Assembly (NCBI GenBank): GCA_964349485.1
Contig: CAYGGE010000006.1
Coordinates: forward strand, 1 to 50,256
Reading direction: 5' to 3'
Origin: an uncultured Candidatus Saccharibacteria bacterium
GTDB taxonomy: Bacteria; Patescibacteriota; UBA1384; CAYGGE01
DNA: 50,256 nucleotides
Shown piece after piece: positions 6,104 through 40,819 of this stretch. The position numbers and the translations under genes were made by a program. Each line of letters starts with the position of its first letter. The stretch's first letter is position 1. The notes under the pieces are model-generated. The model made no database searches. It was not told the origin of the DNA and was given only the letters and a program-made list of their open reading frames with translations.

Positions 6104-8584
6104 ATGAAAGATACGATTAAAGTTATCGGCGCGCGAGTCCATAATCTTAAGAACATTAGCGTCGAAATCCCTAAGAATAAACTAACCGTTATAACTGGAC
6201 TCTCTGGTTCGGGAAAATCTTCGTTGGCCTTCGACACCATATATGCTGAAGGTCAACGCCGTTATGTCGAGTCGCTTTCAAGCTATGCACGACAGTTTTT
6301 AGGTGTGATGGAAAAGCCCGATGTCGATTATATCGAAGGTCTCTCCCCAGCCATCTCAATCGATCAAAAAACCGCTGGTCGCAGTCCTAGATCTACAGTC
6401 GGGACCATGAGTGAGGTCTATGACTACCTTCGTTTACTGTTCGCCAAGATCGGTGACGTACACTGTCCTGTTTGTAACGAGGTTGCCAACAAGGAACGCC
6501 GCGAAGTAATTACAACAAATAGTGCCGGTACTAAGCGCAAGATGTTGACTACTGTACACGTCTGTACTGCTTGTGCGCACGAATTTCCCGAGATCACCAT
6601 GAGCTCATTCTCATTCAACAGTCCTTCTGGTGCTTGTCAGACCTGTCAGGGACTTGGTGTACGGCTGGTAATCGACCCAGAATATGTCTTCCCAAATAAA
6701 CGCTTAACTCTCGCTGAAGGTGCCATCCGACCTTGGAGCCGGATCACTAGCCACGCCAGCTGGTACAACAAGACCCTGAAAACCATGAGTGAAGCCTACA
6801 ACATCTCACTTGATACGCCGATCAACAAATTGACTGACTCTGAGATCGACTTAATTCTCTATGGTGATAAATCGGGGGATAGAACATTTGAAGGTGTCAT
6901 CCCTAATCTTGAAAGACGTTACAAAGACACCGATTCCGACTATGTCCGTAACGAGATCGAAAAATACATGATCGAGAAGATTTGCGATATCTGTAAAGGC
7001 AAACGGCTAAGGCTTGAAGTACTTTCAATTACCATCAATGATCACTCAATTGCCGATATAACCTGCATGACAATTGAAACGGCAAACGCATTTTTTGCCA
7101 ACTTAACGTTTCCACACCACGACGAGAAAATTACCGGTCCGATTCTTCGGGAAATTCGCAATCGACTCGGTTATCTTGTCCAGGTCGGTTTGCCCTATCT
7201 AACGCTCGATCGAAACGCCGATACTTTAGCAGGCGGTGAGGCTCAACGCATTCGGCTAGCGACTCAATTGGGTTCTGCATTGACTGGCGTGCTCTACATT
7301 CTAGATGAGCCATCAATTGGTTTACACCCTAAAGATCACGATAATTTGATTCAGACCATCACTCAACTACGCGATCTCGGTAACACAGTCATTGTCGTTG
7401 AACATGACCAGACGACCATGGAAGCCGCTGACTACTTAATCGACGTAGGACCGGGCGCTGGTGACCATGGTGGACGAATCGTCGCCAAGGGTACTCCAGA
7501 AGAAGTAAAGCAGAATCCTCAATCGCCAACAGGTCGGTACCTTGCCGGAATCGAAACAGTTGAGGTACCTAAGAAGCGACGTAAACCGTCAGCGAATATT
7601 ATTACGATTACTGGCGCTAACGAATTTAATCTTAAAAATGTCACAGCAAGCTTTCCCTTACATAGCTTCGTTTGTGTAACTGGAGTCTCAGGTTCAGGTA
7701 AAAGTACTCTAGTTTCAGATATTTTAGCCAGAGCACTGTCCAAAAAGTTTCACAATGCCAAAACAGAGCCTGGTAAGCATGCATCGATCACCGGGCTTGA
7801 ACACATCAACAAGGTTATCGCAATTGATCAATCGCCGATTGGCCGAACACCTCGTTCGAATCCCGCGACCTATACTGGTGTTTTCACTCCGATTCGCGAG
7901 TTGTTTGCCAACACGGCCCTAGCGAAAGACAGAAAGTACGATGAAGGTCACTTCTCCTTTAACGTTCGTGGTGGACGATGTGAACACTGCCGAGGCGAAG
8001 GTGCCATGAAGATTGAGATGCACTTCTTGCCCGATGTCTATGTCACCTGTGAAACCTGTAACGGTACCCGGTATAATCAAGAGGTCTTAGATGTCCTATA
8101 TCGAGACAAAACTATTGCCGAAGTACTCGACCTGACCGTCGAGGAGGCCTGCAAATTTTTCGCTGACGTCAAACAGGTTTACGATAAGCTGAAAGTCCTT
8201 TCCGATGTTGGCTTAGACTACATGCGCCTCGGACAGACTGCCACTAGCCTTTCTGGTGGTGAGGCTCAGCGAGTAAAACTCGCGACTGAACTATCGCGTC
8301 ACGATACCGGAAAAACACTCTACATTCTCGATGAACCAACTAGTGGCCTCCATTTTGAGGACATCAAACGGTTACTCGTTGTCCTTCAAGCCCTCGTCGA
8401 GAAAGGCAATACAGTTCTGGTCATCGAACATAACTTAGACGTTATTAAATCGGCCGACTGGATTATTGACATGGGTCCAGACGGTGGCAGTCACGGCGGT
8501 CAGGTCGTAGCCACTGGCACTCCTGAACAAGTTGTCAGGGTCGCGGCTTCGCATACCGGACGTTACCTGTCTAAAGTACTCTAG
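6104..8584 (+). CDS. uvrA: Excinuclease ABC subunit A, 826 aa, apparently lacking the UvrB-binding domain
   Basis: Two ABC modules ([32 protein letters not shown] twice, ILDEP twice). Zinc modules CPVC...CTAC and CEHC...CETC. Confidence 0.93.
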
Positions 8585-12637: not shown

Positions 12638-12713
12638 GGGCCGTTAGCTCAGTTGGTAGAGCACTTCCATGGCATGGAAGGGGTCAGGAGTTCGAGTCTC
12701 CTACGGTCCACCA
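12638..12713 (+). tRNA. tRNA-Ala(GGC)
   Basis: Acceptor GGGCCGT/ACGGTCC with the G3:U70 identity pair. Anticodon stem CTTCC/GGAAG with loop ATGGCAT (GGC). T arm AGGAG-TTCGAGT-CTCCT. ACCA. Confidence 0.93.
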
Positions 12714-14235
12714 AATTGCTATTTGACATATTAATATATTCTTCCAACCTGAACGGAAGGCTTATATTGGGTGTTCCAAAACCATTTATAAGTGAGTATT
12801 TCGGATTAGCTGTAAAGATCATATTGTGAACCATATTTTTTAGTTCTATACCTGATCTTGTCCATGTTTCAGCCGGTGTTCCAAGGAATTTTAGTGTTAG
12901 TTGTAGAGCCTCCTCAAAGTTAGGTTCTTTTTTGTATACGACGTTTGTTCGCAAGTCTTTCACTTGTTGGTCTAATTCATCAATCCTTGCCTCGTAGCGG
13001 CCTCGTACGCTCTCTGAGCGAGCCGTAGGCATTAACTTTACATATTCATCGATCTGAGACTCTAGGGACTTAATCTCAGCTTCATTAGAAGCATTACCTA
13101 ATTCCATCTCCTCGACTTTTCGTTGCCATATTCGCATAGCGACGATTTCTGCCATTTCAAGCACCTCCTTCTCGATTTTTATATTTTCAAGTAGCTGAAT
13201 ATAATCTGTTTCAACACGACTAGCAGTAATATTCTTCGGATTAGCAACGCACTCTTTGTTATTGCACGTGTAGTGGGAATAATACTTACGCTTACCTCTG
13301 CTGGTACTTCCAGTTAACTTTCTGTCGCAAAAAGCGCAGTCGACGACTCTTCGTAGTGGGAACTCTCGACTGTCATACTCACGTGGGCCACGGTCAGGCC
13401 GCTTAAGCTTCTTTTGAATCTTCACGAATGTTTCTTCGGAGATAAGGGCAGTATGTTGACCTCTTCTTTTGGAAATATCCCATGCCTTGTATTCGACAAT
13501 GCCAGCATAGAGCGGTTGCATCATAATGCCTTTAACGTAATCGCAATCGATCTTTCTTTTATCGCTGCCGATAAGGTTGTGATAATTTTGAGTAATAAGA
13601 AATTCAATAAAATCTGTTTGGCTTATAATTCTGTCTTCAGCAAAAGCATTGAGTGCCTCTGTCAAAATATCGGTAATATCTGTTATGGGCATTAAGAGCT
13701 TGCCATGTTCGCTATTCTTTCTGTACTCATAACCTGCCGGCGCCTTGAAGCACCAATAGCCTCGTTCGACACGTGCTCGCATCTTCTGGCAAACTTGGCG
13801 TCGGTTTTGTTTTCGCTCTAGCTCATTTTGAGCAGCGAATATTGTTTCAACAAACTCGCCCTCAGCACTATCGTCAAACTGATAGTTAAGGCAGCGCAGT
13901 CGTGCGTCGCGGGCATGTAACTCAGCTCTCAATTTTCGGTGAACGCCTACGTCTCGCGCAAAGCGTTTCAGATCATCAAAGATGACGACATATTTACTTT
14001 CCCAATGGTCGTCTAAGTACTTAAGAAGGGCCGTCATGGCCGGTCGGTCAAAGAGTCCGCCAGAGATACCTTCTTCACGAAAAACTTCCTCAACCTCTAG
14101 ACTTACCGAGGCGGCGTCAAGTCGACAGCGATGTTCTTGGCTGTCGAGTCCGCTCCCTTCCTTAACTTGCTTATCGGAAGAAACGCGGCAATAAATTAGG
14201 GCTCTAGCGTACTCGTTTTCCATCTTCGTACTCAA
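12649..14235 (-). CDS. Large serine recombinase (integrase)
   Basis: Resolvase catalytic block ALIYCRVSSDKQ, a recombinase domain, the zinc ribbon CAFCDRK...YTCNNKEC and a coiled-coil. TTG at 14235, or more likely ATG at 14223. The last 18 codons are antisense to tRNA-Ala. Confidence 0.9.
   Translation of the reverse strand: MSTKMENEYARALIYCRVSSDKQVKEGSGLDSQEHRCRLDAASVSLEVEEVFREEGISGGLFDRPAMTALLKYLDDHWESKYVVIFDDLKRFARDVGVHRKLRAELHARDARLRCLNYQFDDSAEGEFVETIFAAQNELERKQNRRQVCQKMRARVERGYWCFKAPAGYEYRKNSEHGKLLMPITDITDILTEALNAFAEDRIISQTDFIEFLITQNYHNLIGSDKRKIDCDYVKGIMMQPLYAGIVEYKAWDISKRRGQHTALISEETFVKIQKKLKRPDRGPREYDSREFPLRRVVDCAFCDRKLTGSTSRGKRKYYSHYTCNNKECVANPKNITASRVETDYIQLLENIKIEKEVLEMAEIVAMRIWQRKVEEMELGNASNEAEIKSLESQIDEYVKLMPTARSESVRGRYEARIDELDQQVKDLRTNVVYKKEPNFEEALQLTLKFLGTPAETWTRSGIELKNMVHNMIFTANPKYSLINGFGTPNISLPFRLEEYINMSNSNLVDRRRLELLTPSMPWKCSTN
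12705..12812 (+). repeat. Left direct repeat (attL-like), overlaps the last 9 nt of tRNA-Ala
   Basis: Gap-free hand alignment with 39829-39936 gives 94/108 identities. Shared 14-mer GGTCCACCAAATTG. 33-nt perfect core at 12755-12787. Confidence 0.85.
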
Positions 14236-29580: not shown

Positions 29581-29892
29581 CTAATATTCCTCAGCAAGCA
29601 TCACCGTCATCACCCGACGGCACCTATCTGTCTCCGGATCTTCCCAATGCGTTAGCGACTGATCGTAGTAATCTATCTTCCAAAAGATCTTCTCTCCTTC
29701 CCAAACGATAATGCCGAAATCATGCTCACCGTACGGATCATTCGCTCCGCTGAAATTATCGTACTCGCGTACTGCCTTCATTAACCCATTGATATCCTCC
29801 AGATACTGAACCCCTGTCGTAAACATTACCCCTTGTCCTGACTTCCGAAACACATCGTTCACCCGTGCAATTTGATCAAGTACTGTTTCCAT
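29581..29892 (-). CDS. DUF3768-family protein
   Basis: Hallmark DPYGEHDFG and FWKIDYYD. The tracked GTG start (29949) is unlikely. ATG 29892 is preceded by AGGAGG with a 4-nt spacer. Confidence 0.75.
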   Translation of the reverse strand: METVLDQIARVNDVFRKSGQGVMFTTGVQYLEDINGLMKAVREYDNFSGANDPYGEHDFGIIVWEGEKIFWKIDYYDQSLTHWEDPETDRCRRVMTVMLAEEY

Positions 29893-30125
29893 ATAACCTC
29901 CTAATGTTCTTAATGATCGGGCGTATCGACCTTCCCGCCCTTTGACCACACAGCAAGGAAGGAAGCTGGTCGGGTCAAGGTGGAGCCCTTCCGCTGGAAA
30001 TTTAAAAGAAAAGGGACTACCTTGAGGCGGCCAGACCCTATCCTTATACTGGAAAGACAGGGCGGGAGAACAACTTACCTAGCGCTCATATGGTATTTTC
30101 TCGGTTAAAAGAGTAGAATTAGGGC

Positions 30126-32933
30126 ATGTCATATAGTGAAGCACTAACTAGACAAGAGATCATCGATATTCGACTTAAAAAGGCTGGATGGGATGTTCAT
30201 AATCCTTCTCAGGTTACCTCTGAGTTGGATATTTGGATTGGCTTACCAGAAGGTGTTACGGAACCTCAACATGAGTATCAAGGATATCAATTTGCTGATT
30301 ACGCCTTACTTGACGATAGCGGTTATCCTTTAGCTATCGTTGAAGCTAAAAAGACTTCAAAAGATGCACGTATTGGACAAGAGCAGGCTCGACAATACGC
30401 TGAGAATATTCAGAAGAGTTCCGGCAAATACATGCCGTTTGTCTATTACTCAAACGGACACGATATCTACTTTTGGGACACTGAAAAATCACCACCTCGC
30501 AAGGCATACGGGTTCCCAACCAAACGAGATCTAGAGCGTATGCTTTTCCTGCGAAAGAACGAGAAGCCTCTCTCACAAGAACTGATCAACCGAGAAATTT
30601 CGGGACGTCCTTACCAGATAGAGGCAATTCGCTCAGTCTTTGAGAATCTTGATAAAGGCAAAAGAAAATCGTTACTCGTCATGGCGACTGGTACAGGCAA
30701 AACGAGAACCTGTGTCTCGATGCTCGACGTATTAATGCGTACAAACCATGTGCAACGAGTTCTCTTTCTCGTAGATAGAATCGCCCTGCGCGATCAAGCT
30801 CTGAGTGCCTTTAAAGAGTATCTTCCCAACGCCCCCGTTTGGCCAAAGTCTGGTGAGCAAGAAATTGCAACCGACAGACGCGTATATGTCGCGACATACC
30901 CGACGATGCTCAATATTATCGAGAATAAAGACTGCCCTCTCAGTCCATTCTTTTTCGATATGATTGTGGCTGATGAAAGCCACCGATCAATTTATAATGT
31001 TTATAAAAATATATTTGACTATTTTGATACGATCCAACTTGGCCTAACCGCCACACCCAAAGACGCCCTCGAGCATAATACCTTCGGTCTGTTTGGCTGC
31101 GAAGATGGTATTCCTACCTATGCTTACTCATACGAAGAAGCTGTTAACAACAAACCGCCATATCTCTGCGATTTTGAAGTACTGAAGGTTCGTACTAAGT
31201 TTCAGAAAGAAGGTATTAGGAAAGATAATATTTCACTTGCTGAACAGCAAAAGCTTCTCGCAGATGGCAAAGAGCCGACTGAAATTAACTACGAAGGTAG
31301 TGAGATCGAGAAAAAGGTCACGAACAAAGGGACTAATGCCCTTATCGTTCAAGAGTTCATGGAAGAATGCATTAAGGACGAGAGCGGAACCTTGCCTGGA
31401 AAAACGATCTTCTTTGCTATGACGATGAAGCATGCACGAAGAATACAAGAAGTATTTGATGATCTGTATCCTGAACACAAAGGCACTATCGCCAAAGTGA
31501 TTGTTTCTGATGATTCTCGAGTTTATGGAAAAGGCGGATTGCTCGATCAGTTCGTCAACCAAGACTTCCCTCGCATCGCCATTAGCGTTGACATGCTTGA
31601 TACAGGCATCGACGTTAGAGAATTAGTAAACCTTGTCTTTGCTAAGCCAGTCTTTTCGTATACCAAGTTCTGGCAAATGATTGGACGTGGTACGCGATTG
31701 CTTGAATCCAAAAAGTTAAAGCCGTGGTGTAAAGAAAAAGACAAATTCTTGATTATCGACTGCTGGGAAAACTTCGAGTACTTCGGTATGAATCCCAAGG
31801 GCAAGATTGATCAGCCGTCAAAGCCTATTTCGGTTCGAATTTTTGAAGCAAAGATTCAGAAACTTTTTCTTGCAGGATCACAAAATAACTCCTTACTTAG
31901 CCAGAAAATCATCGAGAAGCTACAAATAGATATTGAGAAACTACCTCAAAACAACGTGGTTGTTTTAGACGCGCAGAGCAAACTCGACAAACTCAACGAT
32001 ACGTTCTGGCAAAGACTGACCGAAGATAAAAAGTTGTTTCTCGAAAAAGAGATTGCTCCACTCATGCGTACTCGCACCGGTGAAGATTTTAAGGCAATGA
32101 GTTTTGAGCTCAAGGTTTTAAATTACTCCCTCGCAAAGCTCGAAGGGCAGACTGAAGAAACCAAGATTCAGACTCTCGAAGAAGCCATGATAGAAATGGT
32201 TTCTGATCTTCCTCTCTCAGTAAATATTGTTGCCAAAGAAAAGGTATTGATCGAAGAAGTGTTAAATAATCATTACATCGCAAGCGCAGATGAAGACGCT
32301 CTCGACCTCCTAATTCAATCAATCGCTCCGCTAATGAAATATCGGGAAGAAGGCATTAAGCCCGATCAAACATCTTTGAACTTGCGTGATATTACGAGCG
32401 AGAAAGAATATATTAAATTCGGCCCCGAGAATGAGCGAATCACAATTCACAAGTATCGAGAAAAAGTAGAAGCGCTCGTTAAACGACTCGAAACTGAAAA
32501 TGATATTTTGTCACGAATCAAAAGCGGAGAGCAAATCAGCCAAGCAGAGGTTGAAGCGCTAGCAAACACTCTTTCCGGATACGAACCATACCCAACTGAG
32601 GAGAACCTTCAAAGGGCTTATGATGCCCGGAAAGTTAGTTTCTTGGATTTAATAAAATACATTATGGGAATCGGTGGGTTAGTCACATTCTCGGAAAAAG
32701 TTTCCGAGTCATTTGCGGAGTTTATCGCTGAACACAACACGTTAACCTCTCAGCAAATACAATTCCTCATCGTGTTGCGTGACTTCATTATCGATAACGG
32801 CGACCTTACTAAGCGAGATCTTGTGAGCGAACCGTTCACAAAGCTTCATGCTCGTGGGTTCTTAGGAATCTTTACTCCACAAATGCAGCAAGAAATTTTA
32901 CAGTTTACAAACAGGATACTGCAACATGCTTAA
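30126..32933 (+). CDS. hsdR: Type I restriction enzyme R subunit
   Basis: N-terminal nuclease region. Helicase motifs LLVMATGTGKT, MIVADESHR and LGLTATP. EcoEI-R-type C-terminal domain. Confidence 0.93.
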   Translation: MSYSEALTRQEIIDIRLKKAGWDVHNPSQVTSELDIWIGLPEGVTEPQHEYQGYQFADYALLDDSGYPLAIVEAKKTSKDARIGQEQARQYAENIQKSSGKYMPFVYYSNGHDIYFWDTEKSPPRKAYGFPTKRDLERMLFLRKNEKPLSQELINREISGRPYQIEAIRSVFENLDKGKRKSLLVMATGTGKTRTCVSMLDVLMRTNHVQRVLFLVDRIALRDQALSAFKEYLPNAPVWPKSGEQEIATDRRVYVATYPTMLNIIENKDCPLSPFFFDMIVADESHRSIYNVYKNIFDYFDTIQLGLTATPKDALEHNTFGLFGCEDGIPTYAYSYEEAVNNKPPYLCDFEVLKVRTKFQKEGIRKDNISLAEQQKLLADGKEPTEINYEGSEIEKKVTNKGTNALIVQEFMEECIKDESGTLPGKTIFFAMTMKHARRIQEVFDDLYPEHKGTIAKVIVSDDSRVYGKGGLLDQFVNQDFPRIAISVDMLDTGIDVRELVNLVFAKPVFSYTKFWQMIGRGTRLLESKKLKPWCKEKDKFLIIDCWENFEYFGMNPKGKIDQPSKPISVRIFEAKIQKLFLAGSQNNSLLSQKIIEKLQIDIEKLPQNNVVVLDAQSKLDKLNDTFWQRLTEDKKLFLEKEIAPLMRTRTGEDFKAMSFELKVLNYSLAKLEGQTEETKIQTLEEAMIEMVSDLPLSVNIVAKEKVLIEEVLNNHYIASADEDALDLLIQSIAPLMKYREEGIKPDQTSLNLRDITSEKEYIKFGPENERITIHKYREKVEALVKRLETENDILSRIKSGEQISQAEVEALANTLSGYEPYPTEENLQRAYDARKVSFLDLIKYIMGIGGLVTFSEKVSESFAEFIAEHNTLTSQQIQFLIVLRDFIIDNGDLTKRDLVSEPFTKLHARGFLGIFTPQMQQEILQFTNRILQHA

Positions 32934-34443
32934 TACCACTCTTAAGTCATCAATCAATAAGCTCTGGGACAAGTTCTGGAGTGGTGGTATTTCTAACCCA
33001 CTCACAGCTATTGATCAGATTTCCTATTTGCTTTTTATGAAGCGGCTTGATGAGCTCGATACCAAAAAGAGACACGATGCAGCATTCACTGGAGAGACAT
33101 ATGTTTCTCCCTTTGCGGGTGAAAACGAGAGGATGCGTTGGAGTTATTTCCGCCAGCTAGAGGGTGGCGAAATGCTATCGCATATCCAGACTAGAGTCTT
33201 TCCTTTTCTCAAAACCCTTGGGAAAGAAGAAAGTCCCTTCGCCAAGCACATGGGAAACGCAGTATTTATTATCTCTAAGCCGTCACTCTTAGTTGAGGCT
33301 GTAGGTATTATCGATGACATTTTCACCGAGATCGAAAAGCAAGAATCCCATGGACAAGGCTTCCAGGACACTCAAGGTGACCTTTATGAATATTTATTAT
33401 CTGAGATCACGAGTGCTGGTAAGCTGGGGCAATTTCGCACACCTCGTCACATCATCCAGCTTATGTGCGAACTTGTTGACCCAAAGCTTGGTGACACCAT
33501 TTGTGACCCCGCATGCGGTACCGGTGGCTTCCTATTAGGAGCCTATCAACACATCATTACAGCGTATACGAGTAACGAACACCGTATAACCGACGACAAC
33601 GGTTTAACCCGTGGACTCCTAGGCGACAAATTAACTGACGAAAGACAATGGACACAGTTAAAAGAAAAAACGTTCTACGGCTATGACATGGACGAAAGCA
33701 TGGTACGAATCGGCCTAATGAACCTTATGATGCACGGCATTTCGACTCCTAATATCGAGCAAAAAGATACGCTGTCCAAGAAATATGACGACGACAACTA
33801 TTACGATTGTATTCTTGCCAACCCACCTTTCAAAGGAAGCATTGATAAGGGCGACATCAACGAATCACTTTCGCTTCCAACAACGAAAACAGAACTTTTA
33901 TTTTTAAACAGAATCATTAAGTCTCTTAAAATCGGTGGCAGAGCCGGAGTAATCGTTCCTGACGGCGTTCTATTTGGCTCTAGTAATGCCCACAAACAAG
34001 CACGCCAGATGCTTCTCAACGATTGTGAACTTCAAGGGGTGATCTCTTTGCCTAGTGGTGTCTTTAAGCCTTACGCTGGAGTAAGTACCGCTATTCTCAT
34101 CTTTGTAAAAGGCGGTGAAACAGAGAAAGTATGGTTTTACGATATGCAAGCTGATGGCTATACGCTGGATGATAAACGCACTAAAATAAGCTCAACGGAT
34201 CTGCCTGATATTGTAGAGAAGTGGCAAGCCAGAAAAGAGCAAGCCGATAACAATCGAGGGTGTAAATTCTTCTCGGTTGATAAGATAGAAATAGAAGAAG
34301 CAGGGTTTGATTTCAGCATTAAGCGCTATAAAGATATAGAACATGCAAAAGTAGATTACGAAAGCTCAGAACTTGTCTTGCAAAAGATTAATATATTAGA
34401 ACAAGTAATTATTACTGGTTTATCAGATTTAGAAGAAATTTAA
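32926..34443 (+). CDS. hsdM: Type I R-M N6-adenine DNA methyltransferase subunit
   Basis: HsdM N-terminal block LWDKFWSGGISNP, AdoMet motif DPACGTGGFL and catalytic NPPF. 8-nt overlap with hsdR. Confidence 0.93.
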   Translation: MLNTTLKSSINKLWDKFWSGGISNPLTAIDQISYLLFMKRLDELDTKKRHDAAFTGETYVSPFAGENERMRWSYFRQLEGGEMLSHIQTRVFPFLKTLGKEESPFAKHMGNAVFIISKPSLLVEAVGIIDDIFTEIEKQESHGQGFQDTQGDLYEYLLSEITSAGKLGQFRTPRHIIQLMCELVDPKLGDTICDPACGTGGFLLGAYQHIITAYTSNEHRITDDNGLTRGLLGDKLTDERQWTQLKEKTFYGYDMDESMVRIGLMNLMMHGISTPNIEQKDTLSKKYDDDNYYDCILANPPFKGSIDKGDINESLSLPTTKTELLFLNRIIKSLKIGGRAGVIVPDGVLFGSSNAHKQARQMLLNDCELQGVISLPSGVFKPYAGVSTAILIFVKGGETEKVWFYDMQADGYTLDDKRTKISSTDLPDIVEKWQARKEQADNNRGCKFFSVDKIEIEEAGFDFSIKRYKDIEHAKVDYESSELVLQKINILEQVIITGLSDLEEI

Positions 34444-34445
34444 TT

Positions 34446-35585
34446 ATGAATTTAGTTGAGCTAGGAAAAGTAGCAGAATTTATTAATGGCTATGCTTTTA
34501 AGCCTTCCAGTTGGTCTTCAGAGGGTATGAAAATAATTCGAATCCAGAACTTAACAAACCCTAGTAAGTCATATAACAGAACAAAGCAAGTAGTTCAAGA
34601 AAGATATAGGGTTCGGAAGGGTGATATTTTAGTGTCTTGGTCAGCGACTCTTGGGGTTTTTGAGTGGGAAGACCAAGAAGATGCATTGCTAAATCAGCAC
34701 ATATTCAAAGTACAGCTAGATTCAACGGTTGTTGATAAACAATACTTTAAGTACGTACTACGATACTCGATCGAAAAAATGGCTCAATTTACACATGGTT
34801 CAACCATGAAACATATTGTTAGACGTGATTTCTTGAACCACCAAATTCCGCTTCCGTCTCTCGAGGACCAGAAGAATATTGTGAAAGTGATAGAGCTGGC
34901 AGAAAGCTTGCTTACGAAACGCAAGAAATCAATTGCATTACTTGATAATTATTTAAAATCAGTCTTTTTGGATATCTTTGGAGACCCAGTAAAGAATCCT
35001 ATTGGATGGAAGACTGAAAAGCTTGGAAATGTTGCAAGTAAAATAACTGACGGAACACATAAAACTCCCGTATACACTAAGGATGGAGTGAAGTTTATCT
35101 CAGCTAAAAATATTAAAGCGGAAGAAGTCACATGGAAAGATATAAAGTTTATATCACAAGTGGAGCATGATAGTCTTTATCAGAGATGTAACCCTGAACG
35201 CAACGATTTGCTTTTAACGAAAAGTGGCAGCTTAGGAATGGTTGCGTTGGTAGATGTTGATTTTGAATTTAGTCTATTCGAAAGTGTTGCCTTAATAAAA
35301 GTAAACCAAAAACTAATCGACCCCATTTTTCTCCGTGAGTATCTTAATTTAAAAGAAATAAAATCTTTTTACTCACAGAGAACCAAGGGGATAGGTGTTA
35401 AACACTTACATTTAGTAGATATCAAATCGTTACCAGTACTTTTGCCACCAATAACTGACCAGCAGAGGTTCGCACGATTAGTTCAGAAGGTTAAAACGCT
35501 AAAGCAGAAAATGTTTGCTCAGTCGTATGCAATGGAAATTCAGCTCCAGTCTTTAATGCAAAAATCGTTTACTTCGGAATTATAG
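34446..35585 (+). CDS. hsdS: Type I R-M specificity subunit (two TRDs)
   Basis: Two target-recognition halves separated by conserved helices (LPSLEDQKNIVKVIE... and LPPITDQQRFARLVQKV...). 2-nt gap after hsdM. Confidence 0.9.
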   Translation: MNLVELGKVAEFINGYAFKPSSWSSEGMKIIRIQNLTNPSKSYNRTKQVVQERYRVRKGDILVSWSATLGVFEWEDQEDALLNQHIFKVQLDSTVVDKQYFKYVLRYSIEKMAQFTHGSTMKHIVRRDFLNHQIPLPSLEDQKNIVKVIELAESLLTKRKKSIALLDNYLKSVFLDIFGDPVKNPIGWKTEKLGNVASKITDGTHKTPVYTKDGVKFISAKNIKAEEVTWKDIKFISQVEHDSLYQRCNPERNDLLLTKSGSLGMVALVDVDFEFSLFESVALIKVNQKLIDPIFLREYLNLKEIKSFYSQRTKGIGVKHLHLVDIKSLPVLLPPITDQQRFARLVQKVKTLKQKMFAQSYAMEIQLQSLMQKSFTSEL

Positions 35586-35690: not shown

Positions 35691-35924
35691 CTAATTAGAA
35701 AGTGCTTGCTTCATCTCTCTTATTTGGTTCTCTCCAAGTTCGATTATTGCACCGGCACAAATCACACAATAGTTACGCCTTGCTCGCGATGCTGTATCGA
35801 CTACGACCAGACAAGGTTGCCCCATAGTAATACTATGGACGTTTGGCTTATGGTAGCATTTTCGCCGAGCCGATGCCGTTTCTACTAGTACATGTTTTAG
35901 AATGTTCTTAGTTTGTGCCATCAT
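35691..35924 (-). CDS. Small 77-aa Cys/His-containing protein, last gene of the PLD-helicase operon
   Basis: Overlaps the helicase gene's 3' end by 17 nt. Contains C-x-H, C and a CVIC (CxxC) motif, which may form a zinc-binding fold. No family recognised. Confidence 0.5.
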   Translation of the reverse strand: MMAQTKNILKHVLVETASARRKCYHKPNVHSITMGQPCLVVVDTASRARRNYCVICAGAIIELGENQIREMKQALSN

Positions 35925-38001
35925 CGCTCCTTATTGCAAGCTTAATGCGTCTCGCCACTCCATCCCCAACCTGGTCAAGTGATTTATAGGCGAGTTCAAG
36001 CTGCTCAGCAGTCCATTTCTCTCTTGTGTCCAGGTCTTGTCCCACGAGCTCGTTGATTTGATTGTTTAGGAATGAGAATAGAGCATCCGCATTATTACCC
36101 CTTACTCCAGGTACTGCCCTTGAGATATCGTAACCAGCGCGTGATAAGCCAAGGTCTGCGAGAATCCGATTGTGAATGCTTTTCGAGCGTTCGTCGAGTC
36201 GTTTGCGAAGTATCTGACGATGCACCTGAGGCTGTACAGGTGACGGTGTAGCGGGTGCTTCTTTACGGGTATTTCTGGCTGCATGCATCTCTCGAAGTTT
36301 TTCAGGTGTAATACCTAATTCTCTGAGCGTAAAGCCACCTGGGGCCTTAGAATCAAGTAATCTGTCTATCACCGTATCGTCTTCTGGGTCTAGATAGGCT
36401 TGTGATAAGAAATGACTTAATATTTCTTTATCAGCTAGCGGCTGATTGTCGTACCTGTGAGCTTCTTGCTCTCCGTCTTCTTTAGTTCTAGAAGTGCCAC
36501 CACTAGCCCCTGACCCGCGCGCCCAAACCTTAACAAGCTCCTGGTCTTGAGCGTCTAGCTCTCTAAAGTCATCCCAGCGGTCCTCGTTGTTTAATCCAAT
36601 ATGGGATACGATATACGCTTGATTATTAGGATGGTCCGCAGCGTTTGGCTCTACTGTTCTCATGACGCGACCTACAAACTGAATATATGGAGCCAAGGAT
36701 CGGTAGGGCTTAAATATGGCTGCAACGCTTAGCGGTGGGTGATCAAAGCCTTCCCCAAGCATAGCCACTTGAACGATACAATCGAGCTGACCACTTCTCA
36801 GTTTGCTAAAAATTGTCTCCTTACGATCATCTGGCATCTCTCCGTAAATTTCCGCAGCTTGAAGCCCCATTTCCTCATATATCGCTCTGACTTGGCGAGC
36901 GTGGTCAACAGACATCGCTGAAGCGATTATCTGGTGAGGGAAACCGGTATGTGCTCGTAACTCCTGCATCTTTTCTACGCTTTTTTCAGCAATGTGGCGA
37001 TTACACTCTTCCGAAAGGGCTACGCCACGTCGAAACCACGCTTGCTCCTTAAGTGCCAGTACCTCTTCAAGGCTAAAGCTTCTACTTTCGTCTTTAACGC
37101 TGAAACTAATCTCTGTTGGTCGGGCGGACGCAGAAGAAACGTGTTTAATGTATCCATTAATCATTGCTAGTGAGAAAGGGTAATGATAAATAAGAGTACC
37201 AACCAGATCTTGATTGTCTGATCGGAATGGTGTCGCGGTCATGCTTACAAAGCGTGCACCAGGGAAAGCTCTAATTACCCGTTGCCAGCTTTCGGCGGCA
37301 ACATGGTGTCCCTCGTCAATTATTATGAGATCGAAGAAGTCCGATGGAAACTGTGAAAGCCAACGGTCAGCTCTACTCGCCAGCTGTTGAATGTTTGCTA
37401 CTACGATATGGCTCTTTGAGCAGTCGTCAATATTCGCCTTGGGGCCGTCTACGAGTGCAGTGAATGGTCCTTTTGAGAAATCGGTGAGTACGTTAGCTTT
37501 TTTCCAAAAGCAACCAGTATTAGAAATGTTAAGGTCAGCGTAGAGCCCAGTCCGAATAGTTTTATTCGGCGCCACAATAAGTACCCTGCCGTTTGATAAT
37601 CCAAAAGGTAGTATTGCAGCGAGGCCTGTCTTGCCGCACCCAACGGGAAGTTGGATGATAGCAGGCTCGGTTGATTTTTCGAAGTGAGTGACTGCGGCAT
37701 CGAATGCTTCCTGTTGTGGTTCGCGAAGATATGGGTTCTTGTTTATCTTTGGATCTGCTTCCGAAAAATAGCCCGCAATGTTACTGGCGTTCATTCCTGC
37801 GTGTCCAAACTCAAGTCGGAACTGTTCAAGGTCGGCTATCTTGTAGTATCGGTAGTCGCTACCGGGGCGTTTTGTTGCGATTAGTTTACCTGCATCATCC
37901 CAACGTCGAAGAGTGGCCGCTGAGACTCCGACGAACTCAGCTGCTTGAGCAACCGTTAGAAAATCAAGTTCTTTTTCATCTTTCATGAATCTACCATACA
38001 A
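35908..38001 (-). CDS. SF2 (DEAD/DEAH, ResIII-like) helicase with N-terminal MerR/excisionase-type HTH
   Basis: HTH LTVAQAAEFVGVSAATLRRWDDAGKL. Q motif LREPQQEAF. Motif I PVGCGKTG, II IIIDEGHH, III MTATPFR, V LGEGFDHP, VI QFVGRVMR. Start is TTG 38001 or ATG 37986. Confidence 0.88.
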   Translation of the reverse strand: MYGRFMKDEKELDFLTVAQAAEFVGVSAATLRRWDDAGKLIATKRPGSDYRYYKIADLEQFRLEFGHAGMNASNIAGYFSEADPKINKNPYLREPQQEAFDAAVTHFEKSTEPAIIQLPVGCGKTGLAAILPFGLSNGRVLIVAPNKTIRTGLYADLNISNTGCFWKKANVLTDFSKGPFTALVDGPKANIDDCSKSHIVVANIQQLASRADRWLSQFPSDFFDLIIIDEGHHVAAESWQRVIRAFPGARFVSMTATPFRSDNQDLVGTLIYHYPFSLAMINGYIKHVSSASARPTEISFSVKDESRSFSLEEVLALKEQAWFRRGVALSEECNRHIAEKSVEKMQELRAHTGFPHQIIASAMSVDHARQVRAIYEEMGLQAAEIYGEMPDDRKETIFSKLRSGQLDCIVQVAMLGEGFDHPPLSVAAIFKPYRSLAPYIQFVGRVMRTVEPNAADHPNNQAYIVSHIGLNNEDRWDDFRELDAQDQELVKVWARGSGASGGTSRTKEDGEQEAHRYDNQPLADKEILSHFLSQAYLDPEDDTVIDRLLDSKAPGGFTLRELGITPEKLREMHAARNTRKEAPATPSPVQPQVHRQILRKRLDERSKSIHNRILADLGLSRAGYDISRAVPGVRGNNADALFSFLNNQINELVGQDLDTREKWTAEQLELAYKSLDQVGDGVARRIKLAIRSDDGTN

Positions 38002-38094
38002 CGTTTAACAACGTTATGCAACCCAATCTTTTTCAGCCGGTGAGTAGGTTTTTACATTTGTTTTACATAGTTGACGGGTTAAATTGGCTCAAAG

Positions 38095-38754
38095 CTAAAG
38101 AGCGCGGTGTTCTTCTCCAGTTAATTTAGAGACCGTCAGATCTAGGGCTTGGCGAACCGCATCGTGCAACATAGCGTCTTTTATTCGTTCACCACGTTTT
38201 CGCTTGTTGGTATAAAGGATAAGGTCGTCTAGACATTCCTCGAGTGAGCTTTCGAGACCTACCTCGTACCATAGTTTTCTCGTTAAGAATGGGATGACTT
38301 GCTCAAGCTGTTCGTCAGTAAGCGTTACATCATAGTGCGTCTTGAGTAACTCGACGGTCTTCACGGATACTGTAGGTTCGAAAGGCACTGGTCGATGCTC
38401 TACGAGAATACCGCGTATCTCAGCGGCTACTCGTTGTTTTTCTTTCATCGGCACAAGAGCCAGAAGAGATGTTGCATGATTACGAAGGTCTGATCGAGAC
38501 AAGCTCTGACTGCCAGATTGCTCTAATAAATCTCGTAAATCATCGAGCTGCTCTTCTCTGAACTGCCGAGGTGAATCTGATTTTGCGCTAGCTTTTTGCC
38601 ACCATTCAAGCTCTTTAATCAACGTAACTAGCCGTCCTGTTTCAGTATCAGGCATAACAATATCGTACTTATCTTTGATAAGCTTCTTGGTCTGTATAAT
38701 CTCTAATTCAGTAGGCTCAGAAAAATCTGAGTTAAGTAGGGATGAGTTATCCAT
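38095..38754 (-). CDS. Hypothetical acidic 219-aa protein, possible two-repeat architecture
   Basis: 7-nt gap after the PLD gene. No known motif. Residues about 22-52 and 131-161 look related (KLIKDKYDIVMPD...LEWW and ELLKTHYDVTLTD...KLWY). Confidence 0.55.
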   Translation of the reverse strand: MDNSSLLNSDFSEPTELEIIQTKKLIKDKYDIVMPDTETGRLVTLIKELEWWQKASAKSDSPRQFREEQLDDLRDLLEQSGSQSLSRSDLRNHATSLLALVPMKEKQRVAAEIRGILVEHRPVPFEPTVSVKTVELLKTHYDVTLTDEQLEQVIPFLTRKLWYEVGLESSLEECLDDLILYTNKRKRGERIKDAMLHDAVRQALDLTVSKLTGEEHRAL

Positions 38755-38761
38755 AGCACTC

Positions 38762-39436
38762 CTAGTGAGGCGTGTTTGCTGTCAGTATTTCTACCCACTG
38801 CATAACAACTTTCAAAGGTATAATATCCAATAAAGCGATAAATAGCCACCATATCACCATTACAGATAACCAGCACAGTACAATTGTACGTAGGATACTT
38901 CGTCGCCTGGGTCGCGCAGTCCTGCTAAAAGCTCGGCCGACTTGGTTGTGTTTCGCACTTAATCCTTCCGCTAGCATGTCGCTAAGCCGAAGGTGACGAA
39001 TAACTTCCACAGTCGAATCCTTATCGGTTATACGGCGCATCATCTCTCGGCTGGACCGTTGCGAAAGGATGTTCAAACTCCCTTCCCAAAGTATTTCCCG
39101 GTCGATAATGGCTACTTTTTCATGAATATAACCGCTAAGGTAATAAATGGTTGCGCCCGTTTCTTCATACTGACCAAGGATGTCCGTGATTTCGCTACGT
39201 TGACCCGGAGCATACTCACGAAGTGGGCGGGTAAAGATAAAGACGTTGATATTGGTGTCTTTAAGTTTGTGCATTAGGCGAAGAAACGTATCAGCGCGGT
39301 GTTTAGAGACAAACGGGCTATAAATAATAATCTCTTCTTTTGCCTTTAACATGTCATTGGCTAGGGCGGAATAGAAAGAAGTTTGATTATAGAGTTTACT
39401 CGTGACGGTATTTTTCTTGTGATTATTAGCTAACAT
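38762..39436 (-). CDS. PLD-superfamily (single HKD) nuclease-like protein with C-terminal TM helix
   Basis: HKD motif HEKVAIIDREILWEGSLN (HxK-x4-D-x6-GSxN). C-terminal hydrophobic segment ILRTIVLCWLSVMVIWWLFIALL. Confidence 0.85.
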   Translation of the reverse strand: MLANNHKKNTVTSKLYNQTSFYSALANDMLKAKEEIIIYSPFVSKHRADTFLRLMHKLKDTNINVFIFTRPLREYAPGQRSEITDILGQYEETGATIYYLSGYIHEKVAIIDREILWEGSLNILSQRSSREMMRRITDKDSTVEVIRHLRLSDMLAEGLSAKHNQVGRAFSRTARPRRRSILRTIVLCWLSVMVIWWLFIALLDIIPLKVVMQWVEILTANTPH

Positions 39437-39489
39437 ATTGCTCCTTAGACCATTTTACCTTAATTGATCTGTAATTCTGAGTAGCGAGT

Positions 39490-39498
39490 TGGTATAAT
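39490..39498 (+). promoter_or_regulatory. Extended -10 promoter (TGgTATAAT) for the XRE gene, predicting a leaderless mRNA
   Basis: TATAAT at 39493-39498 with TG at 39490-39491. The ATG lies at 39507, only 8 nt downstream, and no Shine-Dalgarno is possible. Confidence 0.5.
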
Positions 39499-39506
39499 GT
39501 CGGTAT

Positions 39507-39722
39507 ATGGATAATGAAAAAGACCAAAAAGCTCGCAATAAACTTGGCGCAATACTTAAAGAGGCTCGCTTGAAAGCGGGTCTTACTCAAGCTGAAGTTG
39601 CCGCCAAGGCTAAAGTAAACGCAAATTATTATGCGATTGTTGAACGTGGAGAAGGAACCTACTCCTTCGCTAATTTGCAACGAATAATGAAGGTACTTCA
39701 TATTAAGTCCTTAGACTTATAA
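39507..39722 (+). CDS. XRE-family HTH transcriptional regulator (71 aa)
   Basis: HTH_3 pattern LGAILKEARLKAGLTQAEVAAKAKVNANYYAIVERGE. Divergent from the PLD-helicase operon. Confidence 0.85.
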   Translation: MDNEKDQKARNKLGAILKEARLKAGLTQAEVAAKAKVNANYYAIVERGEGTYSFANLQRIMKVLHIKSLDL

Positions 39723-39943
39723 GAATCAGGGCGCGCTTCGTCGTCCTGTTGTTCTTTATAGATTTTCTCTAATTTAGGCTTCCACTCAATTACGTACTCG
39801 AGAAAGGTGTTCCAAAAAATACCGCTAGGGTCCACCAAATTGTTTTTTAACTTGTTGATATATTCCTCCAACCTGAAAGGAAGGCTTATATTGGGTGTTC
39901 CAAAACCATTTTTAAGCGAGTATTTTGGGTTTTCTGACACCAC
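39698..39943 (-). pseudogene. Recombinase 3'-end fragment, or an alternative recombinase C-terminal segment
   Basis: Encodes NPKYSLKNGFGTPNISLPFRLEEYINKLKNNLVD, homologous to the recombinase C-terminal region. There is no homology upstream of codon 5. The frame continues for 43 more codons into the island. Confidence 0.6.
39829..39936 (+). repeat. Right direct repeat (attR-like)
   Basis: 94/108 identical to 12705-12812 at a constant offset of 27124. Contains the tRNA-Ala 3' terminal 9-mer GGTCCACCA. Confidence 0.85.
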
Positions 39944-40189: not shown

Positions 40190-40819
40190 ATGGACAGACT
40201 TACCTCGAAGCCAATCCTAGCCTGGATCAACGCCTATGGCGCTTGGGATGCAACACTTCGTGACCCGATAGAAATGCGTGGTTACGACCAATACCTCGAC
40301 GCACTGGTTAATTATTTGAAAAATGTGAATGGACAGGTCAAGGCTGTCTATTTTTCGGGTGGGATGCTTGATACGAAGGGTCGGACAGAGTGTGAAACTG
40401 TCATCCCCATCCTTAAACAACGACTAGCGGAGTATGGCATAGTGGTCCCGATTCACGCCGACACTGAAAGTATCACTTCGATAGGTATCGCCCAAAAATT
40501 TGTTCATACCTACTTGTCTACCTATGCCAACCATCAGCCGTTACTTTTTTGCGATGAGGTGCGAGTTGAGGTGAATACTTATGCAGTACAGTATTTCTTA
40601 GACGAATCTGGTAGGCCAGACATTTCTGCGAGCAGTGTGGTAATTGGGTTACCTAGACAGGATATACACCCACATAGCACAATTCAGCATCAACAAGAGA
40701 AGCTGACTCACATGAAACAAGTCGGGGTCATGGAGGCTGATATAGCGCTAATAACAAGTCGAATGGCAGAAAATGCAGCTATCTTGAGGAAGATTGCTGC
40801 CTCAAATGGTAAAACTTGA
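40190..40819 (+). CDS. DUF218/YdcF-family protein
   Basis: VYFSGGMLDTKGRTECE ... ESITSIGIAQ matches the DUF218 core (SGG...sEa...eS.nT.eNa pattern). Confidence 0.65.
   Translation: MDRLTSKPILAWINAYGAWDATLRDPIEMRGYDQYLDALVNYLKNVNGQVKAVYFSGGMLDTKGRTECETVIPILKQRLAEYGIVVPIHADTESITSIGIAQKFVHTYLSTYANHQPLLFCDEVRVEVNTYAVQYFLDESGRPDISASSVVIGLPRQDIHPHSTIQHQQEKLTHMKQVGVMEADIALITSRMAENAAILRKIAASNGKT

Follow-up and report, generated by a model that had tools for sequence, protein, structure and literature searches.

Two apparently independent gene cassettes, one with a membrane-anchored phospholipase D-type protein and one with a helicase and a micro-protein, side by side at the cargo end of a putatively mobile element of a Saccharibacteria genome

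The interval 35691–39722 of a contig from an uncultured Candidatus Saccharibacteria bacterium (assembly GCA_964349485.1, contig CAYGGE010000006.1; the whole stretch of 50,256 nt that was analysed is called here the window) raises the question of whether the genes packed into it form one system or more than one. Four minus-strand genes, named G1 to G4 in the order of transcription, diverge there from a gene for a small XRE-type regulator. The original prediction took them all for a single undescribed defence operon, in which a phospholipase D (PLD)-family nuclease (G1), a protein without nameable motif (G2), a superfamily 2 (SF2) helicase with a helix-turn-helix (HTH) domain (G3) and a 77-aa protein (G4) would belong together under control of the XRE protein. 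The answer reached here, held with high confidence as far as modularity is concerned, is that the interval consists of two independent, unrelated gene cassettes placed side by side, both of them conserved: cassette A, with the XRE gene, G1 and G2, and cassette B, with G3 and G4.

One operon or two cassettes

The co-occurrence of homologs was counted over all 195 fetched loci. The homologs of G1 or G2 and those of G3 or G4 never shared a locus (109 helicase loci, 82 PLD loci), and in a set of 84 helicase loci no PLD or G2 homolog was found. The original prediction had itself proposed conserved co-occurrence of the four genes in other genomes as the test of a single XRE-controlled system, and its claim failed that test and stands contradicted. 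The contigs with G2 homologs keep XRE, PLD and G2 genes and go on with unrelated ones, which encode in the first contig an inositol phosphatase, a protein of 1311 aa and a type I restriction-modification (R-M) system other than that of the window, in the second three unknown proteins of 506, 195 and 262 aa, and in the third, which holds the nearest relative of G2 (89% identity), a DUF3105 protein and others, and not a helicase. In the contigs of three close helicase homologs, both flanks differ. In another locus (L106), a type I R-M system 82–83% identical to that of the window lies directly 3′ of the PLD gene and a short form of G2, with no helicase between them.

The extent of similarity at the DNA level points to a boundary in the same place. 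Similarity to helicase loci spans positions 35707–38033, the limit at 38033 being that of two of them (L005 and L007), and similarity to three PLD loci (L001, L002 and L003) starts at 38120–38219 and ends at 39377–39837, depending on the locus. The 86 nt left between, at 38034–38119, match neither the helicase nor the PLD loci; this cassette junction, as drawn from the DNA comparison, covers the very end of G2, from its last codons through the stop, and some of the space between the two genes.

The single-operon explanation holds that the PLD protein and the SF2 helicase act jointly, as a split effector of the DISARM, Mokosh or SauUSI kind, with G2 and G4 as accessories. It can appeal to the arrangement of all four genes on the same strand with short junctions, to the matches of the PLD protein to MkoC and DrmC, and to those of the helicase core to SauUSI-type type IV enzymes. 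Furthermore, a search of the G2–G3 gap for terminator-like sites on the minus strand gave none, and read-through co-expression is for this reason possible in this genome. Against a joint effector there are the complete lack of co-occurrence, the nearest G2 relative with its DUF3105 gene, the break of DNA homology within or beside the G2–G3 gap, the predicted operator that the helicase has upstream of its own start, and the lack of any match to DUF1998, DUF3427 or a Mokosh helicase. So, a joint operon can be regarded as extremely improbable and, since PLD and helicase never occur together elsewhere, the one-system claim is to be dropped. That genes of a defence island are tightly packed on one strand is no evidence for a single system; here, what the packing reflects is a mosaic of cargo cassettes.

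Concerning the gene calls, the five open reading frames (ORFs) were found where they had been placed. The XRE gene (39507–39722, plus strand) does diverge from the four minus-strand genes, and the junctions are a gap of 7 nt between G1 and G2, a gap of 93 nt between G2 and G3 as called, and an overlap of 17 nt between G4 and the helicase stop. In the case of G3, the domains and motifs attributed to it were borne out, while its start was not: the call at 35908–38001 (minus strand, 697 aa) used a TTG codon at 38001, and translation almost certainly begins with the ATG at 37986, because the close homologs have 691 aa and the TTG falls within a conserved upstream element. With the corrected start (G3 at 35908–37986), the true G2–G3 gap is therefore 108 nt.

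The helicase, its small partner and their upstream element

The protein encoded by G3 joins an N-terminal HTH of the MerR/excisionase type to an SF2 helicase. Pfam recognizes MerR/HTH_17 at residues 14–63 (37813–37962), followed by ResIII (1.8e-27) and Helicase_C (1e-11) in a core encoded at 36646–37728, with the DEGH box at 37306–37317. All of 14 homologs share motifs I, II, III and VI (GxGKT, DEGH, TATP and QxxGRxxR) without change. Behind the core there is a conserved tail of about 245 aa (35911–36645), in which no Pfam family, nuclease or other, was recognized. The closest solved relatives are RadD (6jde, 4.5e-22), SauUSI (7clg, 3.2e-16) and HsdR, and in PHROGs the protein matches phrog_16 (6.6e-55).

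The most constant companion of the helicase is G4 (35691–35924, minus strand), which encodes a basic 77-aa protein. Of 84 helicase loci fetched, 82 could be assessed, and 81 of these have a G4 homolog immediately 3′ of the helicase gene and on its strand. Among 135 flanking ORFs there was no conserved third gene. The window protein has, as described before, four Cys (23, 38, 53 and 56) and three His (11, 25 and 30). The four-Cys set is not a feature of the family, as only 37 of 83 members have all four: Cys23 is present in 82, Cys or His at position 38 in 81, His30 in 76, Cys53 in 63 and Cys56 in 41. A search of the PDB with the G4 profile gave no relative, and Pfam scans of 55 members gave only noise. 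G4 occurs also on plasmids of Rhodococcus, Acinetobacter, Xanthomonas, Rhizobium and Aminobacter. Helicases devoid of the HTH have it beside them too, on Acinetobacter plasmids of 9.9 and 25 kb and a Xanthomonas plasmid of 47 kb. A G4-type gene was seen unannotated in Mycobacterium sherrisii (L006, 8075–8281), where an ORF of the opposite strand had been called instead, and in the Acinetobacter baumannii plasmid pAC1633-3 (L172, 2453–2683); this micro-protein family is missed by some annotation pipelines.

Upstream of the helicase there is an operator-like element made of tandem repeats of about 10 nt, with consensus TTGCATAAnGTTG, which lie 4–10 nt 5′ of the start codon. In the window, the predicted promoter/operator (37987–38033, minus strand) contains TTGCATAACGTTG at 38009–38021, the second 10-nt repeat at 37999–38008 and a −10-like TATGGT at 37993–37998, which ends 6 nt 5′ of the ATG. 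The resulting layout, TTGCAT-N17-TATGGT-N6-ATG, is promoter-like and almost without leader. When TTGCATAANGTTG was searched for with at most two mismatches within 90 nt upstream of the helicase, it was found in 51 of 83 loci, across phyla, against a background of 0.004 per 100 nt for these loci as a whole; in the window, the match at 38009–38021 is the sole one. In two relatives whose HTH differs, the repeat differs too; three relatives without HTH carry none and have ordinary Shine-Dalgarno leaders. The former two are on plasmids of Rhizobium and Aminobacter (L173 and L174); they have another excisionase-type HTH, and a repeat of the GTTATCTG/CTATC type takes the place of TTGCATAAnGTTG, in what looks like a natural swap of the specificities of HTH and repeat. 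Since the type of repeat covaries with the type of HTH, and is absent where the HTH is absent, the tandem element is most likely bound by the MerR-type HTH of the helicase itself, which would amount to autoregulation. Judging by its sequence, the conserved upstream element marks cassette B as a self-contained expression unit. An operator that is conserved across phyla and travels with its gene is rare, and it offers a direct handle on regulation.

The helicase has 4313 homologous matches, with 65–70% identity to proteins of Mycobacterium, Micrococcus and other Actinomycetota. In a scan of 185,579 species genomes, a single-sequence query found nothing, and an alignment-based one gave relatives in 404 (about 0.2%). 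The G3–G4 pair was found in Actinomycetota, Alpha- and Gammaproteobacteria, Planctomycetota, Acidobacteriota and Patescibacteria. Plasmids are well represented, with 37 records in which the match spans at least 80% of the length of G3, and the hosts of plasmid-borne cassettes include Acinetobacter, Xanthomonas, Rhodococcus and Mycobacterium. Phage genomes gave only distant helicase cores, and a few predicted prophage contigs carry the cassette, mostly near contig ends.

As to neighbouring genes, the recurrent families among the 135 flanking ORFs were Fic/SoFic (6 cases), HTH_37 (5), and dGTPase, PD-Lambda-2, KwaA, SAVED-HNH and HamA (2 each). A type IIG R-M enzyme, DruM, mad3, GmrSD, PsyrA and a KAP NTPase appeared once each, and the annotated neighbours on plasmids include a BsuBI/PstI R-M system, HipAB and a DUF1778-GNAT pair.

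These surroundings bear on what cassette B may be for. One explanation is that it serves the housekeeping or establishment of mobile elements (replication restart, repair or anti-restriction) and not defence. It agrees with the location of the cassette on plasmids, including small mobilizable ones, and at the ends of predicted prophage contigs, with the repair helicase RadD being the closest characterised relative, and with the lack of a nuclease or any other killing domain. It agrees less with the failure of G3 as a RadD family member (91 bits against the 720 required), with neighbours that are variable, many of them known defence genes rather than genes of replication or transfer, or with the chromosomal relatives that lie away from replication modules. 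Tight autoregulation and an obligate small partner are also conflict-like, though they are not exclusive to conflict modules. On balance, we consider the housekeeping explanation somewhat unlikely. Under the preferred reading of cassette B as a conflict module, G3 would be an ATP-dependent SF2 DNA translocase, as is usual in its family, translationally coupled to its obligate partner G4. With no recognisable nuclease, the pair may act against phages or plasmids by translocation on foreign DNA or by its remodelling.

The nuclease cassette and the element that carries it

In cassette A, the XRE gene encodes a 71-aa protein (PF01381 HTH_3, 8.5e-10) with PADLOC matches to the Control_protein (C-protein) and CapH regulator models. 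It is separated from G1 by a divergent control region of 70 nt (39437–39506). In related loci this region has a strong Shine-Dalgarno sequence before the ATG of the PLD gene and a semi-conserved, A/T-rich, dyad-like segment, (c)AGAAATT-N6-9-AATTT(c)CAG, which is a candidate operator.

G1 (38762–39436, minus strand, 224 aa) is a PLD-type protein (PF13091 PLDc_2, 2.3e-9) with a C-terminal membrane anchor. Both features announced for it were found: a single HKD motif, HEKVAIIDREILWEGSLN, at residues 105–122 (39071–39124), and a transmembrane (TM) helix at residues 185–203 (38828–38884; Kyte-Doolittle 2.66), with RPRRR just before it. Among 23 homologs, no variation was seen at H105, K107, D112 or N122. 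The protein is basic (isoelectric point 9.7) and has no signal peptide. Its best PADLOC match is the C-terminal PLD domain of MkoC (1.6e-13; residues 11–134 of G1 against 983–1109 of the model), above a weak match to DrmC (1e-5, 23 bits). Its closest solved relative is mouse Zucchini/MitoPLD (4ggj, E 0.0096), and NucT gives 0.07. The homologs are 626 proteins; among the matches listed, they have about 225–245 aa, and those with a named source come from Patescibacteria. A genome scan with the G1 alignment gave 435 relatives, including shorter soluble forms and MkoC-like fusions, of which the MkoC-like proteins have about 1055 aa.

A membrane-bound PLD protein could also be a hydrolase or transphosphatidylase of membrane phospholipids, with no action on nucleic acids. 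Apart from the anchor itself, this lipid explanation draws on the source annotations of G1 homologs, which read ‘cardiolipin synthase-like enzyme’, and on the closest solved relative, deposited as ‘mitochondrial cardiolipin hydrolase’. Zucchini is, however, now regarded as a nuclease, and G1 has a single HKD in a core of about 150 aa, as in nucleases of the Nuc/Zucchini type. The best profile matches are nuclease domains of Mokosh and DISARM, the NCBIfam cardiolipin synthase model gives 12 bits against a cut-off of 290, and the sister forms of the protein do without TM helix (0 of 31). An action on lipids thus seems very improbable, and G1 is taken here as a putative nuclease.

The second gene of the cassette, G2 (38095–38754, minus strand, 219 aa), encodes an acidic protein (isoelectric point 5.19) which had been described as lacking a nameable motif, and no family was indeed found for it in Pfam, PADLOC, NCBIfam or PHROGs. 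It has eight close homologs, the nearest one annotated as from a Patescibacteria group bacterium, and a search of 1.84 billion proteins gave only 62 representative clusters. The AlphaFold2 model (mean predicted local distance difference test, pLDDT, 81; predicted template modelling score 0.71) is all-alpha, with nine helices. A Foldseek search of the model against the PDB and BFVD gave no match (E ≥ 0.28, template modelling score ≤ 0.28), and neither did the G2 profile against the PDB. An internal duplication was considered and is not claimed, as its signals were weak (BLAST 8e-5, hhalign probability 12%).

A G2-type gene follows immediately 3′ of the anchored PLD gene in 24 of 41 loci. Its form is long in ten of them; in the other 14 it is short, with about 120 aa equivalent to the N-terminal half of G2. 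Other small ORFs were noticed as replacement partners: a convergent 56-aa ORF with a CxxC...CxxxxxC pattern in L105, L107, L111 and L113 (e.g. 6627–6797 in L113), and a 72-aa ORF co-oriented with the XRE gene in L096, L098, L101, L105 and L117 (e.g. 5635–5853 in L101).

The rest of cassette A is better kept: the divergent homologous XRE gene is present in 37 and the C-terminal TM helix in 39 of the 41 loci. A single metagenome-assembled genome (MAG) contains five copies. There is also a soluble sister form, with a PLD protein of about 150 aa without TM helix, followed by a helical ORF of 60–110 aa. The XRE gene, here convergent, accompanies this form in 25 of 31 loci; homology of these helical ORFs to the G2-type partners was not demonstrated (hhalign probability 14%). 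The soluble form was found in loci L134–L163 (e.g. 5983–12108 in L139). Several of the MAGs concerned are labelled as Gammaproteobacteria, Methanobacterium or Desulfobacterota, which could mean either mis-binned contigs or an element of wide host range.

The neighbours of the anchored form are mixed and include reverse transcriptases, HsdR, GmrSD, Fic and resolvases. The reverse transcriptase gene (about 320–370 aa) is convergent and lies just 3′ of the XRE/PLD cassette in 9 of the 41 loci (L090, L105, L108, L114, L120, L122, L125 at 7018–8094, L126 and L128); there is none in the window. It has the motif LGNLTSQ, which we take to be typical of the reverse transcriptases of diversity-generating retroelements. 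A link to retrons or to defence-associated reverse transcriptases was discarded, as the enzyme resembles the former type rather than that of retrons and its best PADLOC match is a generic reverse transcriptase model. An apparent N-terminal extension in the protein P0260 is a spurious-looking translation and not a fusion.

In the window, both cassettes lie at the right, cargo end of an element of about 27 kb (12638–39931), and the mobile-island context proposed for them is supported by its features. A tRNA-Ala gene lies at 12638–12713 and the gene of a large serine recombinase at 12649–14235, and a direct repeat of 107 nt, with copies 87.9% identical, flanks the element. The attL-like copy (12701–12807, plus strand) starts in the 3′ end of the tRNA gene, and the attR-like copy (39825–39931, plus strand) starts with a copy of that end, CTAGGGTCCACCA, 100 nt past the XRE gene. 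After the recombinase come genes for a VirB4/TraG-type ATPase, PrgI, two pilins and an M23 peptidase; further along there are a DUF87/TrwB-like ATPase of 880 aa (coupling-protein-like), Replic_Relax and DUF3768 genes, and hsdRMS. The metabolic genes of the element are those of peptide deformylase, a DHFR-like protein, aldehyde dehydrogenase and HIT. What was found thus has the features of an integrative and conjugative element (ICE), namely a recombinase by a tRNA, direct repeats, and genes of a type IV secretion system (T4SS), of coupling-protein and of relaxase type. From its sequence features, it can be described as a putatively mobile T4SS element integrated at tRNA-Ala. As the T4SS genes lie between the repeats, the T4SS of this Patescibacteria genome is itself on a putatively mobile element.

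The hsdRMS genes announced to the left of the interval form a complete type I R-M system (30126–35585, plus strand), convergent with cassette B. In Pfam terms, HsdR has HSDR_N, ResIII and EcoEI_R_C, HsdM has HsdM_N and N6_Mtase, and HsdS has two Methylase_S domains. A DUF3768 gene (29581–29949 in the window, 10394–10714 in L005) flanks a variable R-M slot, occupied by hsdRMS in the window and by Z1, NgoFVII and a C5-methylase in L005; DUF3768 was also seen near PLD cassettes in L109 and L128. On the right, an 81-aa ORF over the repeat (39698–39943, minus strand) duplicates the part coding for the C-terminus of the recombinase (12649–12807, minus strand), the frame of which continues across the left repeat and into the gene of the tRNA. 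The 81-aa ORF is probably not a gene. Beyond the right repeat there are nusA-like and further genes, and the 209-aa ORF between the repeat and nusA (40190–40819) had no match in Pfam, PADLOC, NCBIfam or PHROGs. Nothing relevant came from scanning the interval for Rfam families and for repeats.

This setting suggests another explanation for cassette A, namely a nuclease of DNA processing or scavenging linked to the T4SS, comparable to NucT-ComB and Nuc, with the XRE protein as a local regulator. NucT works with the ComB T4SS in the DNA uptake of Helicobacter, Nuc is encoded by the conjugative plasmid pKM101, and Patescibacteria depend on scavenged nucleotides. In agreement with it, and at odds with a conflict function, the soluble PLD form has VirB4/PrgI/pilin genes at a distance of 1–6 kb in 19 of its 31 loci, in an orientation that does not vary and with VirB4 proteins 65–75% identical to that of the window; one locus of the anchored form (L091) abuts a VirB4 gene whose product is 81% identical. 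It also counts in the same direction that Patescibacteria T4SS are reported to be widespread and mostly relaxase-less (PMC12102498). The lack of relaxase suggests non-conjugative roles, so that cassette A could serve T4SS-linked DNA handling.

Other data argue for a different relation to the T4SS. Nuc and NucT are exported or outer-membrane proteins, whereas G1 lacks a signal peptide and its charges would place the PLD domain in the cytoplasm. T4SS/ICE-type genes (VirB4, PrgI, pilin, Replic_Relax) are within 6 kb in only 3 of 41 loci of the anchored form. In the window, the slot beside the T4SS operon contains unrelated metabolic genes and no cassette A, and because of this the T4SS-adjacent position behaves as a variable cargo slot. 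Finally, several traits of the cassette are of the conflict type: as many as five divergent copies in one MAG, a repressor of its own, and small partner genes that replace one another. A T4SS-linked processing nuclease seems, all told, improbable, though it is a serious alternative.

The preferred reading of cassette A is that of a conflict cassette of the toxin/immunity kind, for addiction, exclusion or abortive defence, which recurs as an accessory beside the T4SS gene cluster of Patescibacteria. From its context, the XRE protein would repress the bicistronic G1–G2 operon and keep its transcription low. Single-HKD enzymes such as Nuc and Zucchini dimerise into one active site, and G1 could do the same and cut nucleic acid. 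Its catalytic domain presumably faces the cytoplasm at the membrane, since there is no signal peptide and positive charges precede the TM helix (positive-inside rule). The acidic G2 may bind the basic nuclease as its cognate partner, either to restrain it or to sense a trigger.

Weight of the proposed functions and comparison with known systems

Taken as a whole, the reading of the interval as two independent conflict cassettes in the cargo end of a T4SS element is probable. Its parts are not equally firm: a conflict function for each cassette, suggested by context, is about an even matter, and the specific mechanisms, drawn from domain families, are tentative. Several observations weigh against it. 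The only ground for the defence assignment of both cassettes is gene neighbourhood, taken as raw counts without a genome-wide background; the neighbour genes in high-GC loci were called with a naive ORF caller, and those of the anchored PLD form also include housekeeping genes (LeuRS, NusB and RNase Y). The effector domain of cassette B is an ATPase only, and the single-sequence AlphaFold2 model of G4 is poor (pLDDT 57). In cassette A, 17 of the 41 loci have no G2-type gene and show other small ORFs there, and no similarity could be detected between G2 and known inhibitors.

The stronger proposal, that both cassettes are genuine unnamed immune systems, the helicase–G4 pair as a widespread nuclease-free module and XRE/PLD-TM/G2 as a module specific to Patescibacteria, is rather doubtful. 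If it were true, the MerR-type HTH of the helicase–G4 module would sense or regulate through the tandem operator transferred with it, and membrane-tethered G1 would attack nucleic acid entering by phage injection or through the T4SS, so that cassette A would tell self from non-self by location and not by modification. To our knowledge, almost nothing is known of conflict systems in Patescibacteria or of the role of T4SS in such regions. Cassette B offers a concrete candidate, a pair of helicase and micro-protein without PADLOC entry, and cassette A a repressor-controlled, membrane-tethered PLD family tied to Patescibacteria T4SS regions.

Concerning known systems, that none of those named fits the interval was also the outcome of a search with PADLOC-DB 2.0.0, in which neither cassette had a complete match. 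PADLOC gave matches only at the level of domains, among them partial ones of G3 to PbeA and to type IV restriction enzymes (mREase_IV, 4e-14), and there was no Pfam, PDB or Foldseek match to a system. A search of the literature for HTH-helicase or PLD-XRE systems gave nothing relevant at the level of titles and abstracts. The effector logic of PLD nuclease plus SF2 helicase, as in DISARM or Mokosh, which the original prediction had invoked, is not supported, its components being unlinked elsewhere.

Compared to Mokosh, the PLD domain of G1 resembles the C-terminal nuclease domain of MkoC and, weakly, MkoB. G1 is, however, a stand-alone, membrane-anchored protein of about 225 aa with an XRE and a helical partner. 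Mokosh helicases are SF1 enzymes, and no MkoA or MkoC helicase model is among the 23 PADLOC matches of G3. Nor are the PLD and a G3-type helicase kept together: they co-occurred in none of the 82 PLD loci and none of the 109 helicase loci. With DISARM, cassette A may share a nuclease component of the PLD family, as G1 has a weak match to DrmC and a stronger one to the PLD domain of MkoC. It is in agreement with the earlier account of the interval (35691–39722) that there is neither a DUF1998 (DrmB) partner nor a dedicated methylase in it; in addition, no DrmA-type helicase match was found in the four proteins, and the adjacent HsdM belongs to the complete type I R-M system.

SauUSI-type type IV enzymes are similar to the core of G3, and a PLD gene is near in the window. 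In contrast to them, the PLD protein here is encoded by a separate and unlinked gene, and G3 lacks the DUF3427 target-recognition domain. An HTH stands at its N-terminus, its conserved tail is of another kind, and the 77-aa G4 is its obligate partner. The RadD/XPB-type helicases are the best characterised relatives of the ATPase core of G3 (NCBIfam RadD, 5.3e-26), from which it departs in score, as said above, and in having the HTH, a distinct tail, G4, mobility and a mixed neighbourhood with known defence genes.

G1 has in common with Nuc of pKM101, NucT of H. pylori and Zucchini one HKD per chain and a catalytic core of about 150 aa, and with Zucchini also the membrane anchor. Both Nuc and NucT have ties to elements with a T4SS or to DNA uptake. 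The similarity to these enzymes is marginal, and G1 differs from them in its C-terminal anchorage, in the lack of signal peptide and in its XRE and G2-type partners. The small XRE gene by an effector operon recalls repressor-controlled cassettes, such as R-M systems with C-proteins, CBASS with CapH and tripartite toxin–antitoxin systems. The effector with a small, putatively co-transcribed partner, the short G1–G2 gap and the multiple copies recall toxin–antitoxin pairs of type II. Cassette A differs in having no methylase (in the window, in L001, in L002 or in other loci) and no CapP-type protease; its XRE gene is not co-transcribed with the effector, and the neutralisation by G2 is hypothetical. 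Both cassettes are assembled from well-known components, namely an HKD nuclease, an SF2 helicase and HTH domains of the XRE and MerR types.

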